Source of the DNA: a virus
Length of the DNA: 64,000 bases
Reading direction: 5' to 3' (one strand)
Virus record (IMG/VR): IMGVR_UViG_3300035180_002599
Span: 1 to 64,000 of that record
The notes below the pieces were generated by a model, which was not told the origin of the DNA, did no database searches, and worked only from the letters and a program-made list of their open reading frames with translations. Shown piece by piece: positions 12,363 to 17,508 of this stretch. The position numbers were made by a program, and so were the translations under genes. Each line of letters opens with the position of its first letter. Positions within the stretch are counted from its first letter, which is position 1.

Positions 12363-12824
12363 ATGGATTATAATAGTTTTTGGAGAACAATGGTTAACAA
12401 CTCTAAAGTCACACCTAAAGAAGTATTGTCGGAGTTACAAAAAACTAAGCAAAATATGAAGACCCTTAAAAGGGAAGACATGTACAAACAGTACGGTCAA
12501 ATGTTTGACTCTATTTTTGAAGATTTAACTAAAATTTTCAGTGAAGATGAACAACCAGAAATCAACACAGAGAAATCAAAAGGTTTTTCTGAAAAAACTG
12601 GTAAAATCGAAATCCCTTTGGCAGGGTATTCAAAGGCAGATATTTCCGTTAAGTTGGAAAAAGATATTTTGATTGTATCAAATACAAACCCAAATAAACC
12701 TTCCAAAACATTGAAATATCGAATACCAGGTGATATTGAAGAAGTTTCATTAAGCATGGAAAACGGATTGTTAACTGCAATGGTTAAACGACCTAATTTA
12801 ACTCCAAATATTAAGTGGATTTAA
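12363..12824 (+). CDS. Small heat-shock (Hsp20 / alpha-crystallin) family protein
   Basis: C-terminal IEIPLAGYSKADISV...MENGLL. Confidence 0.7.
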   Translation: MDYNSFWRTMVNNSKVTPKEVLSELQKTKQNMKTLKREDMYKQYGQMFDSIFEDLTKIFSEDEQPEINTEKSKGFSEKTGKIEIPLAGYSKADISVKLEKDILIVSNTNPNKPSKTLKYRIPGDIEEVSLSMENGLLTAMVKRPNLTPNIKWI

Positions 12825-12891
12825 TCTTATTTTAAGATAGTTTGTGATATAATACAAACATAAATAAAACAACAAACAAAAGGAACAAGTC

Positions 12892-12924
12892 ATGAAGAGT
12901 ACAAAACTTCAAGACGTGTTTTGA
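12892..12924 (+). CDS. Putative leader peptide MKSTKLQDVF upstream of two tRNA-Lys genes
   Basis: Promoter at 12831-12853, AAGGA RBS at 12880-12884, Lys codons at positions 2 and 5; the stop codon lies inside a hairpin switch. Confidence 0.55.
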   Translation: MKSTKLQDVF

Positions 12925-12986
12925 TTCATTCAATCTAAGAATCAAGAGGCGTCTTTAAATAATCAAATGATTGATAGGACGCCTCT
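12911..12986 (+). promoter_or_regulatory. Two-state RNA switch overlapping the tRNA-Lys acceptor stem
   Basis: 12911-12927 pairs with 12939-12955 (16 bp, one G.G mismatch), or 12945-12955 pairs with 12976-12986 (11 bp), which includes tRNA nt 1-6. Confidence 0.6.
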
Positions 12987-13054
12987 AAAACTTTAAAGTG
13001 AAGTACCGTGCTTTTAACACGGATAAGATGGAGCATTACCGTCTAGAGGTACCA
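12981..13054 (+). tRNA. tRNA-Lys(UUU), non-canonical D/T loops
   Basis: Acceptor GCCTCTA/TAGAGGT+ACCA; anticodon arm CCGTG-cttttaa-CACGG; T-arm GATGG-agcatta-CCGTC. Confidence 0.8.
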
Positions 13055-13063
13055 TACATTTAT

Positions 13064-13139
13064 GTATCGGTAGCCCAATGGTTAAGGCACTATACTTTTA
13101 ATATAGGGATTGAGAGTTCGAGTCTCTCTCGATACACCA
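13064..13139 (+). tRNA. tRNA-Lys(UUU)
   Basis: GTATCGG/TCGATAC+ACCA; CTATA-cttttaa-TATAG; TTCGAGT T-loop. Confidence 0.92.
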
Positions 13140-13142
13140 AAA

Positions 13143-13276
13143 TAGTTAATTTATGAAGACACATTATCTTGAAAATAAATGAAGGTCATGAGACAGTTGT
13201 GTGTGTAACCATAAGTTAATTAATAATTTGATAAAGAAACGGATTTTATAACAGACACATCACGTTTCTTTATCAA
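13143..13276 (+). ncRNA. Candidate structured RNA (two long hairpins) between the tRNA blocks
   Basis: 13143-13155/13210-13222 (13 bp including GU pairs) and 13228-13241/13263-13276 (14 bp perfect). Confidence 0.35.
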
Positions 13277-13320
13277 GTTATAAAATAACTAATAAATAAA
13301 ATAAAAATCAAGGAGCAAAT

Positions 13321-13407
13321 ATGTTTAGTCATATGCAACCGCATAGTTTTAGTACTTTTCATCATTTTAGTATGAGCATGTTTGCTCATTTTATGCTGAG
13401 TTATTAA
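13321..13407 (+). CDS. Putative attenuator leader peptide MFSHMQPHSFSTFHHFSMSMFAHFMLSY
   Basis: AAGGAG RBS at 13310-13315; 6 Phe, 6 Ser (all AGY), 5 His, 5 Met and 1 Pro, matching the downstream tRNA set; followed by alternative hairpins. Confidence 0.8.
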   Translation: MFSHMQPHSFSTFHHFSMSMFAHFMLSY

Positions 13408-13556
13408 TCTCAGGAATTTCGGTTCCTGAGAGGGAACCGAAATAAGATCTTACAAATCCTCTGTTTCAGTAACATTTCCGTTACGTTCCTCCAACAAAAT
13501 AATTTTTTTTAATGTCACCTTTTTCAGAAATACTTATACTTTTTCTGAAATTTTCT
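13408..13556 (+). promoter_or_regulatory. Attenuator-like region: mutually exclusive hairpins, C-rich tract and weak terminator-like hairpin
   Basis: Hairpin A 13408-13416/13423-13431; hairpin B 13416-13427/13432-13443 (GAGA loop); 17 C versus 5 G in 13451-13520; hairpin 13522-13530/13542-13550 followed by TTTTCT. Confidence 0.6.
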
Positions 13557-13559
13557 CAT

Positions 13560-13635
13560 GCCATTCATACAAATCAAGTGAATGTACCAGACTGAAAATC
13601 TGAGGAGCCGGGAGCGTTACCCGGGAATGGCACCA
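13560..13635 (+). tRNA. tRNA-Phe(GAA), non-canonical D/T loops
   Basis: GCCATTC/GAATGGC+ACCA; CAGA-ctgaaaa-TCTG; T-arm CCGGG-agcgtta-CCCGG. Confidence 0.8.
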
Positions 13636-13673
13636 TTGAACATACAATAAAGAACTTATTGAAGTTTTTAATT

Positions 13674-13747
13674 GTGTTCGTAGCATAAAAGTAATGCGCT
13701 GGTTTGTGGCACCAGATAAGCGGGAGCGTTACCCGTCGTTCACCCCA
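13674..13747 (+). tRNA. tRNA-His(GUG), non-canonical T loop, no encoded G-1
   Basis: GTGTTCG/CGTTCAC+C+CCA; CTGGT-ttgtggc-ACCAG; GCGGG-agcgtta-CCCGT. Confidence 0.75.
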
Positions 13748-13751
13748 AAAT

Positions 13752-13826
13752 GCCATCATAGCTCAATGGTAGAGCGATACGTTGAAGGCGTATGCGTTGT
13801 AGGTTCAAGTCCTACTGTTGGCACCA
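13752..13826 (+). tRNA. tRNA-Phe(GAA)
   Basis: GCCATCA/TGTTGGC+ACCA; ATACG-ttgaagg-CGTAT; TTCAAGT T-loop. Confidence 0.88.
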
Positions 13827-13835
13827 TCTTTTTAT

Positions 13836-13912
13836 CTGGTTGTAACGTGAGTGGTATAACGGGCCGTTTTGGAAACGGGGAGAAGTGAGTTCGAGTCTCA
13901 CCTGCCAGACCA
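13836..13912 (+). tRNA. tRNA-Pro(UGG)
   Basis: C1-G72/A73; CCGT-tttggaa-ACGG; GTGAG-ttcgagt-CTCAC; CCA encoded. Confidence 0.8.
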
Positions 13913-13925
13913 ACAATTTGTAAAT

Positions 13926-14002
13926 GGTGTTTGTAGATTTAATGGTAAAACGCTTCCCTGTGAAGGAAGTAATTGAGAGTTCAAGTCTCTCCATTCACCC
14001 CA
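13926..14002 (+). tRNA. tRNA-His(GUG) with encoded G-1
   Basis: G-GTGTTTG/CATTCAC-C-CCA; CTTCC-ctgtgaa-GGAAG; TTCAAGT T-loop. Confidence 0.88.
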
Positions 14003-14008
14003 AAATAT

Positions 14009-14080
14009 GCCTACACTTCAGGTGAAGATCGTTCTCTCATAAGGAATGATAGTGTGGTTCGATACCACATGTAGGTACCA
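14009..14080 (+). tRNA. tRNA-Met(CAU), short D-arm (Ile2 not excluded)
   Basis: GCCTACA/TGTAGGT+ACCA; GTTCT-ctcataa-GGAAT; TGTGG-ttcgata-CCACA. Confidence 0.78.
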
Positions 14081-14097
14081 ATAATAATGTTTAGTAT

Positions 14098-14172
14098 CGG
14101 GATATGGGAAAGTGGTAATCCGCTTGTTTTGGGAACATGAGACCGTCGGTTCGAGCCCGACTATCCCGACCA
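14098..14172 (+). tRNA. tRNA-Pro(UGG)
   Basis: CGGGATA/TATCCCG+ACCA; anticodon loop tttggga; GTCGG-ttcgagc-CCGAC. Confidence 0.9.
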
Positions 14173-14174
14173 TT

Positions 14175-14257
14175 GGGTGAAGCATGCAAGGTGCATAAGA
14201 GGATTGCTAATCCTTGGGTCGAAAGGCTGCTGAGTTCGATTCTCAGTTCACCCGCCA
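14175..14257 (+). tRNA. tRNA-Ser(GCU)
   Basis: GGGTGAA/TTCACCC+G+CCA; GAGGA-ttgctaa-TCCTT; long variable arm. Confidence 0.88.
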
Positions 14258-14296
14258 AAGTTTATATAAATATTTAAAAATATATTAGGTATTCAT

Positions 14297-15001
14297 ATGC
14301 ACTTTAAAAACTTCTTATTTGAAGATGACAAAATAAAACAATATTCTATTTTATTAAAAGAATGTGAAATAATGAATTCAGATGCTATGTTATTGTTTAG
14401 AGGTTCTAAACATCAAAACTCAAATTTTGAACGTATTAAAACCCGAAAAGATAGAAGACCTTTAGACACTTCACCATTGATGCAAAAATATATGGATGAT
14501 GCTTTTGAAAATAAATTTAAAGAGAGAATAAGAAGCACTACAGTTTTCTGTGCTCAAGATAAAGTAATGGCAGGGATTTATGGACCTTTATATGTAGTAT
14601 TTCCCACTACAAAGGCTGAGTATTTTTCTACAGATGAATTTATAGATTTAAATTCAGTATTTTCTGATTATATAGGTAGAACCTTAAGTAAGCTTCATTC
14701 AAAAAAAGTATCTGAATTTGAGAAAAAATATAATTATGATGATTATGCTCAATTTTTGCCGGATGAATTATTAAGAGAAAATAGTTCAGATGATACAAAA
14801 TCACTAGATATGTTAAACGATTTCTTGGATTGTATTGCAGATTTTTATGAAAAAACAAACGTTCCAAAAAATAGAATTGGAGAACAGATGATTCTTTGTG
14901 ATGAATATATCTTGGTAAAATATTCCTCTTTACCTGAACCTGATGTAAACACTTATTCAGAATTAAAAAAAGTTTTAGAAAAATTAATTGAAAATGCTTA
15001 A
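14297..15001 (+). CDS. Putative internal virion protein, ADP-ribosyltransferase-like paralog family
   Basis: MHFKNFLFE N-terminus; LFRG, RRPLDT, RSTTVFC and GEQMI motifs; late promoter upstream. Confidence 0.55.
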   Translation: MHFKNFLFEDDKIKQYSILLKECEIMNSDAMLLFRGSKHQNSNFERIKTRKDRRPLDTSPLMQKYMDDAFENKFKERIRSTTVFCAQDKVMAGIYGPLYVVFPTTKAEYFSTDEFIDLNSVFSDYIGRTLSKLHSKKVSEFEKKYNYDDYAQFLPDELLRENSSDDTKSLDMLNDFLDCIADFYEKTNVPKNRIGEQMILCDEYILVKYSSLPEPDVNTYSELKKVLEKLIENA

Positions 15002-15057
15002 TTAGATTTAAGATTATGTTGATATAATTTGTTATAAGAAAGATAGAAGGAGATACA

Positions 15058-17280: not shown

Positions 17281-17459
17281 GAAAGATTATTGGAATTACA
17301 ATAATTTTAGGTAGTCTTATTTTTTTCTAAGCGACTGTTATTGAAGAAAAAATAAATGCAAATAAAGAAATTGAATTTGCTAAATCTAGATTGCAACAAC
17401 AAATTTTCAGCAATTCAGTTATTTGGTCTAAAGAATGTAATTAAAAAAATTAATATTCT

Positions 17460-17508
17460 TTTAAGATTATTCTGATATAATTATTGTATCAAAAGAAAGA
17501 CAGAAGGA
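17460..17508 (+). repeat. Dispersed promoter/RBS cassette TTTAAG..TGATATAATTATTGTATCAAAAGAAAG..AAGGA
   Basis: Near-identical copies at about 8973, 16453, 17473, 18851, 36551 and 40081; the core is an imperfect palindrome. Confidence 0.7.

Follow-up and report, generated by a model that had tools for sequence, protein, structure and literature searches.

Control of Rho-dependent termination by upstream open reading frames (uORFs) has been described for mgtL and corL, which act on mgtA and corA in Salmonella, and for tnaC and speFL, and in these systems efficient translation of the uORF favours termination (PMC12360218). Abstracts on the trn operon of Anabaena PCC 7120 describe a supernumerary tRNA array on a bacterial megaplasmid; by default it is silent, impaired translation induces it (PMC8421152), and the protein repressor TrcR controls it (PMC10272220). 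This array is the nearest published case, and the abstracts mention no codon-matched leader open reading frame (ORF). Phage tRNA sets, some with altered loops, are reported in titles and abstracts to replace host tRNAs destroyed by nucleases (PMC10264068, PMC11464382, PMC11555353); there these papers treat what the tRNAs do and describe no sensing leader. The element considered here is a 28-codon ORF at 13321-13407 of the window, the whole 64-kb stretch that was analysed, which is the first part of a phage contig of 93,309 bp with 30.6% G+C (IMG/VR record IMGVR_UViG_3300035180_002599). The ORF stands 5' of an array of eight tRNA genes. It is read here as a translated multivalent leader that gauges the codons of its own tRNA array and exerts negative feedback through an RNA switch, a reading to which we give about as much credence as doubt. 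The narrower claim, that a codon-matched and probably translated leader is coupled to a putative RNA switch, is well supported by sequence comparison.

Like mgtL and corL, this element features a short leader in which the position of the ribosome is predicted to choose between folds, in this case folds that differ in the exposure of a C-rich candidate Rho site (PMC12360218). Unlike mgtL and corL, it would control tRNAs rather than proteins, it samples five amino acids or isoacceptors, it belongs to a phage, and it has no sequence homology to them. The hisL, pheL, thrL, and ilvGMEDA leaders share with it an enrichment of the reporting codons, overlapping 1:2, 2:3, and 3:4 pairings, and a composition that is conserved rather than the sequence. 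In contrast to those leaders, there is no U-tract terminator hairpin among the alternatives and no match to an Rfam leader family, and the regulated product would be the tRNA itself instead of an amino-acid pathway. T-box riboswitches also sense the state of the tRNA pool to control translation-related genes; their contact with uncharged tRNA is direct, by way of a specifier codon, and does not depend on translation. The Rfam search returned no T-box match at E<=1 in 12500-15000, and no leader, riboswitch, or small RNA (sRNA) family was matched in the same interval. The element is most likely a gauge, worked by the ribosome, that adjusts the output of the phage tRNAs. The sequence-only reading that preceded this analysis had stated that no attenuator controlling a phage tRNA array in this way was known, and the literature search likewise found no leader peptide controlling tRNA genes.

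The leader and its ribosome binding site are located as follows.
13310-13315, plus strand: Shine-Dalgarno sequence AAGGAG, separated from the ATG by a 5-nt spacer, the modal spacing in real genes
13321-13407, plus strand: leader ORF of 28 codons plus stop, 23 codons of which are read by the downstream tRNA set

The ORF translates as MFSHMQPHSFSTFHHFSMSMFAHFMLSY. Its codons are TTT (six), AGT (five), AGC (one), CAT (five), ATG (five), and CCG (one), together with CAA, ACT, GCT, CTG, and TAT. The genome has 12 sites with the arrangement AAGGAG-N4-6-ATG, 9 of which head ORFs of at least 84 aa. With the codon set defined from the tRNA array, independently of the ORF, 23 of the 28 leader codons belong to the Phe/His/Pro/CAU/Ser(GCU) tRNA set. 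The leader ranks first genome-wide among 1054 ORFs by codon match (82% vs 48% for the runner-up) and is the top of approximately 186,000 28-codon windows in six frames, with 23 matching codons vs 19 at the next independent site. The binomial probability of such a match is 1e-14 against a background in which 14% of phage-gene codons fall in the set. The preference extends below the level of the amino acid. All 6 Ser codons of the leader are AGY, compared with 25% AGY in phage genes (probability ~2e-4), and Pro is encoded only by CCG in the leaders of this phage (one codon) and of the relatives L196 and X5 (two codons each), compared with 8% CCG in phage genes. The codon match of the ORF to the array is thereby confirmed to be far beyond chance. 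The sequence-only reading had named this ORF, its AAGGAG, and its codon list, and these were found exactly as claimed; its count of 23 codons in 28 proved to be the genome-wide maximum, and its extension of the match to the Ser isoacceptor was likewise upheld. Short ORFs are common in AT-rich DNA, where 1054 of at least 20 codons were counted in this case, and a chance ORF without function would be an alternative; it is barely credible for an ORF that is an extreme genome-wide outlier in codon match, is conserved in three lineages, and diverges 7-fold less than the adjacent spacer.

The array that defines the codon set consists of the following genes.
13560-13635, plus strand: tRNA-Phe(GAA), non-canonical (Phe'), the first tRNA of the array, found by aragorn in mitochondrial mode and as a minimum free energy (MFE) cloverleaf
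13674-13747, plus strand: tRNA-His(GUG) with a non-canonical T-arm (His'), Rfam 38.8 bits, also found by aragorn
13752-13826, plus strand: tRNA-Phe(GAA), canonical, above the Rfam gathering score
13836-13912, plus strand: tRNA-Pro(UGG), non-canonical (Pro'), Rfam 37.8 bits, also found by aragorn
13927-14002, plus strand: tRNA-His(GUG), canonical, above the Rfam gathering score
14009-14080, plus strand: tRNA with anticodon CAU and a non-canonical D-arm, found as an MFE cloverleaf only, with a normal loop CUCAUAA
14098-14172, plus strand: tRNA-Pro(UGG), canonical, above the Rfam gathering score
14175-14257, plus strand: tRNA-Ser(GCU) with a long variable arm, found by aragorn in mitochondrial mode and as a cloverleaf, with a weak Rfam score of 26.5 bits to the Sec model

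By sequence and predicted fold the array is judged to be real and partly non-canonical. His' (13674), Phe (13752), Pro' (13836), His (13927), and Pro (14098) score above the Rfam gathering score. Phe' at 13560-13635 has no Rfam match at E<=1, and over 79 nt its region is identical (0 differences) in the relative seen in X5 and X11. The CAU tRNA at 14009-14080 has no match to an Rfam covariance model, and aragorn puts the gene in a different register. This tRNA is either the Met elongator or Ile2, and database matches were uninformative. The eight-gene array and the CAU anticodon of the sequence-only reading stood, and the gene that it assigned to Met may instead be Ile2. The odd Phe and His tRNAs feature an unusual T-arm, CGGGAGCGTTACCCG, at 13606-13622 and 13719-13735 with the T-loop AGCGUUA. 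This T-arm is present in 97 IMG/VR contigs (L001-L097), many of them with it inside large phage tRNA arrays and several with His-like genes, and it seems to mark a non-canonical design that is widespread among phage tRNAs.

Relatives of the locus were sought in several collections. No close relatives were found in INPHARED or IMG/VR by blastn, flanking proteins, UvsX, or conserved motifs; the sole IMG/VR hit, L215, was rejected as a GC-rich chance match without tRNAs, and hits in genome contigs were also due to chance. A first metagenome search pattern gave no matches, and a second gave 53 loci, of which L196 alone is related. The relatives compared here are contigs of the sequencing runs X4, X5, X7, and X11 aligned on 12830-14300, together with the metagenome contig L196, and they supply three further versions of the locus with the arrays seen in part.

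L196 is a divergent relative. It features a perfect TATAAATA at the equivalent place, followed by AAGGA 7 nt 5' of an ATG that opens a 24-codon ORF, MFTHTHVSFMPTHMFTHMMFHPFS. Of its 23 post-start codons, 16 are Phe, His, Met, or Pro codons (p = 3e-10), with CCG used for Pro both times. The codon order of the two leaders is no more alike than in codon-shuffled versions (p = 0.28). The 160 nt that follow the L196 stop are 87% identical to this phage. A terminator-like hairpin inside the ORF at 13372-89 was considered and rejected, since it has no counterpart in the L196 leader when the sequence is read by eye. The X5 relative comes from wastewater, and the same form occurs in X11. Here, 15 substitutions and 2 indels fall in the 123-nt spacer that follows tRNA-Lys, and the leader and switch have 4 substitutions in 209 nt, which is 7-fold less divergence than in the spacer (p = 3e-4). 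The X5/X11 ORF differs from the ORF of the window by three changes only, the in-frame 3-nt loss of CAA, AGT>AGC, and CTG>CCG. The codon lost is a non-matching one, AGC is still read by the GCU anticodon, and the Leu>Pro change gains a match, so that the match of the X5 leader rises to 24 of 27 codons. The X5 array lacks the canonical Phe and has His' ahead of Phe'. The X7 relative, a vent contig, joins a leader end of the L196 type (...CCG TTT AGT TAA) to an array nearly identical to ours over 13418-14170, and has unrelated sequence after tRNA-Pro where this phage has tRNA-Ser(GCU). A leader end poor in Ser-AGY codons goes with an array that has no tRNA-Ser after tRNA-Pro, a single event of co-variation that agrees with the prediction. 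X4 also contains a second form, which skips 13645-13919 of the array.

The leader-peptide nature of the ORF is suggested by this pattern, because the sequence turns over fast, composition is kept, indels are in frame, and the position of the stop is fixed. The pattern is unlike that expected of a specifically folded peptide or an untranslated spacer. The comparison supports the view that codon content, and not the order of the peptide, is what selection keeps in the leader, and from it we infer that the ORF is translated. An untranslated structured spacer or small RNA, with the richness in ATG, CAT, and TTT arising from palindromes in AT-rich DNA, was also considered. The region folds well (z = -5.1), one MFE structure pairs the Shine-Dalgarno sequence and AUG with 13374-87, CAT is the reverse complement of ATG, and the minus strand has a 38-codon frame. 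In L196 the plus frame, Shine-Dalgarno sequence, and ATG are kept while the minus frame is lost, and that minus-strand frame was rejected as a gene on this ground. The X5 indel is in frame, composition outlasts a complete reshuffling of the sequence, and the region matches no Rfam family, which together make an untranslated RNA very improbable.

The same comparison bears on the possibility of a small functional peptide that depends on its composition, either a metal-binding or nascent-chain sensor rich in His and Met or a hydrophobic effector, whose match to the tRNAs would be coincidental. His and Met are classical metal ligands, and the Ser>Thr replacement seen between leaders is conservative. 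A copper-sensing leader peptide, CruR, also provides a precedent, as summarized in a later account (Roy et al. 2022, via PMC12360218; PMC9426467). A functional peptide leaves the bias at the codon level unexplained (Ser 6/6 AGY, Pro always CCG), as well as the location of the ORF before exactly matching tRNAs and the stop codon that abuts a conserved switch, and the order of residues is not conserved. It is regarded as improbable, and the leader that reports on codons is preferred to it.

If the leader is to act on the array, both must be transcribed together, and the following signals are found upstream.
12813-12853, plus strand: early promoter of the phage's own class, score 22 with a position weight matrix (PWM), site at 12848
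12981-13054 and 13064-13139: tRNA-Lys pair, two genes, 5' of the leader
13291-13298, plus strand: T4-late-promoter-like motif AATAAATA, 29 nt 5' of the leader ATG, which is the modal distance; a putative promoter

The early promoter class is found in ~31 copies across the contig, on the plus strand only, with the form TTAAT-N7-TTTAAG-N9-TGaTATAAT, and the PWM was made from these ~31 sites of the phage itself. In a PWM scan, 12848 is the sole early-class site in 12700-14400 and the next one is at 15023. L196 has the same early promoter and tRNA-Lys pair. The second recurring signal is ATAAATA, of the T4 late type, which is located 19-33 nt ahead of many start codons, and none occurs within 13299-14265, that is, from the leader through the end of the array. 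Because neither an early-class nor an ATAAATA site lies in between, the leader and all eight tRNAs are expected to share promoters. By this sequence criterion, no promoter of the phage's own classes separates the leader ORF from the tRNAs. The sequence-only reading had counted an independent promoter in 13410-13560 as evidence against its proposal, and none of the phage's own classes is present there. A sigma70-like match at 13512-40 was rejected as a promoter because such matches occur here at chance frequency, it fits neither of the phage's two classes (PWM score <0), and L196 does not preserve its spacing.

The region between the leader stop codon and the first tRNA features several predicted RNA structures.
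13408-13431, plus strand: hairpin A, arms 13408-16 / 13423-31, -13.2 kcal/mol, 10 bp in the fold, abutting the stop codon
13416-13443, plus strand: hairpin B, arms 13416-27 / 13432-43, 12 bp, -16.7 kcal/mol, which excludes A
13432-13490, plus strand: long-range helix 3:4, formed by 13432-37/13485-90 and 13439-43/13474-78 and enclosing small hairpins
13444-13520, plus strand: C-rich, G-poor tract with 18 C and 6 G, a candidate Rho loading (rut) site
13522-13554, plus strand: AU-rich hairpin (13522-30/13542-50, -7.5 kcal/mol) and short U run directly before the first tRNA, a possible pause or termination site

Hairpins A and B are mutually exclusive since they have nucleotides in common (13416-27/13423-31), and both are as drawn in the sequence-only reading. 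The 5' arm of hairpin A begins 0 nt after the stop codon in this phage and 1 nt after it in L196. The arms of hairpin A are identical in L196, where a 5-nt insertion is limited to the loop, and the hairpin is unchanged in X5. In L196 hairpin B consists of 9 bp + 3 bp when paired by hand. The 3:4 helix is seen in folds where A forms; its GGGAAC/GUUCCU half is invariant, and the X5 change 13478 C>U in this helix preserves a G.U pair. Within the C-rich tract, the segment 13451-13520 contains 17 C vs 5 G, as previously counted, and this places it in the top 0.6% of 70-nt genome windows by C-G skew. The tract of L196 has 19 C and 6 G, and the stems of hairpin 13522-54, which the sequence-only reading had not named, are also conserved in L196. 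An invariant block, CGTTCCTCCAACA, was noted at 13481-13496 in the tract; it has an anti-Shine-Dalgarno-like CCUCC that pairs with the leader's own Shine-Dalgarno sequence in one fold.

The switch was modelled in silico with a 30-nt ribosome footprint masked. With the ribosome at the stop codon, constrained folds of both phages form B without the 3:4 helix. In the absence of a ribosome, L196 forms A and the 3:4 helix, and in this phage the free minimum-energy folds give A and 3:4 in a 276-nt fold and B in a 260-nt fold. When the ribosome is stalled within the ORF, A and 3:4 form in L196 at both positions modelled. A ribosome-dependent choice between A and B is therefore what the models predict. 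In the A state the 3:4 helix encloses 13444-13490 of the tract, and 13491-13520 is open in both states. Hairpin 13522-54 folds in every modelled state, and classical intrinsic attenuation is not supported because this sole hairpin with a U run forms in all of them.

The preferred mechanism follows from these folds. A ribosome that quickly reaches the stop codon would cover the 5' arm of hairpin A, and B would then form. The B state would leave the tract 13444-13520 single-stranded, and Rho would probably end transcription before 13560, with a pause likely at the hairpin and U run of 13522-54. If the matched codons instead slow or stall the ribosome, A could form first; segment 3 would then pair with segment 4 and fold part of the tract, and RNA polymerase would continue into the array. 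The outcome would be negative feedback, in which phage tRNAs are made when their own codons are decoded slowly, either through loss of host tRNA or through high demand. We infer the involvement of Rho, the direction of control, and the physiological trigger.

A regulatory leader with the same codons could also have another output. Translation might promote expression, through coupling or as a check of working phage tRNAs, or the leader might affect how the tRNA precursor is processed or how stable it is. What speaks for translation and codon selection holds equally for this alternative, no regulated terminator was found, and the hairpin that precedes the first tRNA forms in all modelled states. 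The alternative is opposed by the complementarity between the leader and the first tRNA, which is no better than in shuffles (duplex energy -33.3 vs -33.1 for shuffles), a result on which a switch that captures the first tRNA was also rejected, and by the conserved C-rich, G-poor tract, which suits a Rho site better than a processing site. Another output is considered unlikely, though less so than a peptide function, and negative feedback through the switch is preferred to it.

Several results weigh against negative feedback by a codon-gauging leader, and some of them limit what had been proposed from the sequence alone. The first concerns generality. In unrelated phage contigs (L001-L097), 101 gaps that precede tRNA blocks were screened by permutation and gave no general codon matching, with a mean rank of 0.46 and 5 gaps below 0.05 vs 5 expected. 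The screen is crude, as it uses canonical tRNAs and ATG starts only. Its best z is 5.6 vs ~9-10 for this leader, the latter by arithmetic from the match figures. The codon-matched leader design is not universal because the screen gave no general signal.

The second group of results concerns the codon match. The L196-type leader has 4 Thr codons without a tRNA-Thr in the array stretch seen in X7, and the change from Ser to Thr in this type of leader is also allowed under selection on the peptide. Co-variation of leader and array, which the sequence-only reading had proposed to look for in related phages, is thus represented by the Ser event and opposed by the four unmatched Thr codons, in arrays seen in part. 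Additionally, if the CAU tRNA is Ile2, the Met codons of the leader would lose their match.

The remaining results concern the switch. The claim that a freed 13432-43 pairs with 13474-78 and 13485-90 holds in the folds, and its 13439-43/13474-78 half is not kept in L196. No compensatory double changes or covarying pairs were seen in the relatives. The idea that a ribosome at the stop codon gives B is reproduced by the folds in both phages, and its counterpart, that stalling gives A, is not reproduced in this phage, where a stalled ribosome results in B (mid ORF) or in an extended B-type hairpin (late ORF); the stalled A and 3:4 state is predicted by modelling for L196 only. Sequence and folds show no U run after A, B, or 3:4, and the region of the U-run hairpin, 13509-13557, is replaced in the X5 and X4b relatives. 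A role of Rho is a best guess from base composition.

The source is a distant T4-like phage. The identity of its UvsX is <=64% to the phage collection and <=61% to IMG/VR contigs, and the sequencing runs in which the stretch is found sampled microbial mat, sediment, wastewater, and hydrothermal vents, with no RNA run among those listed. Examples of the early promoter are located in the window at 12813-12853, 15000-15028, and 17450-17481, and each copy is followed by a common 5' untranslated region (5'UTR), TATTGTATCAAAAGAAAGAAGGA. The form of this promoter resembles Campylobacter sigma70 promoters, which we take as a hint of a Campylobacterota host. Sites of the ATAAATA/TATAAATA type are found at 13292, 14266, 25431, 7831(-), 5379(-), and others, 19-56 nt ahead of many start codons, and they include sites of minus-strand structural genes.

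Other features were observed in the surroundings of the leader and array. A mini-ORF at 12892-12924 lies after the early promoter and before the tRNA-Lys genes, and it is kept at L196:745-792 (MKSTKLQDVF against MKTKSSKITSHGIEC); 2 of its 9 codons here and 3 of 14 in L196 are Lys codons, which is not significant alone. L196 has an inserted homing endonuclease gene (L196:1133-1687, phrog_314, E = 4e-10) that separates the tRNA-Lys pair from the leader and is absent in the window. A 12-bp hairpin at 13230-13274 between tRNA-Lys and the leader has no U run after it, and in X5 its arms are unchanged and its loop and flanks are heavily substituted. The gene at 14297-15001, located 3' of the array, is preceded by a perfect TATAAATA at 14265. 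Its only PHROG matches are to families of unknown function (phrog_11975), and it has no relatives outside its own cluster among 5.8 billion proteins. The neighbouring proteins have no match in Pfam.

The purpose and use of phage tRNA genes have been debated for decades. A more specific form of the proposal is that the leader is a five-way gauge that turns on odd, possibly nuclease-resistant replacement tRNAs only upon destruction or exhaustion of the host Phe, His, Pro, Met, and Ser(GCU) tRNAs, as an inducible counter-defence via Rho-dependent attenuation; this is put forward tentatively, as a possibility that is more doubtful than negative feedback itself. The element is ~250 nt long and self-contained, natural variants of it exist, and it is directly testable. 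If the proposal is true, the phage takes a direct measure of decoding capacity and provides tRNAs as they are needed. Attenuation mediated by the ribosome would then reach beyond amino-acid operons to tRNA genes, and the way phage tRNAs are regulated would be tied to the recently discovered defence systems that cleave tRNA.

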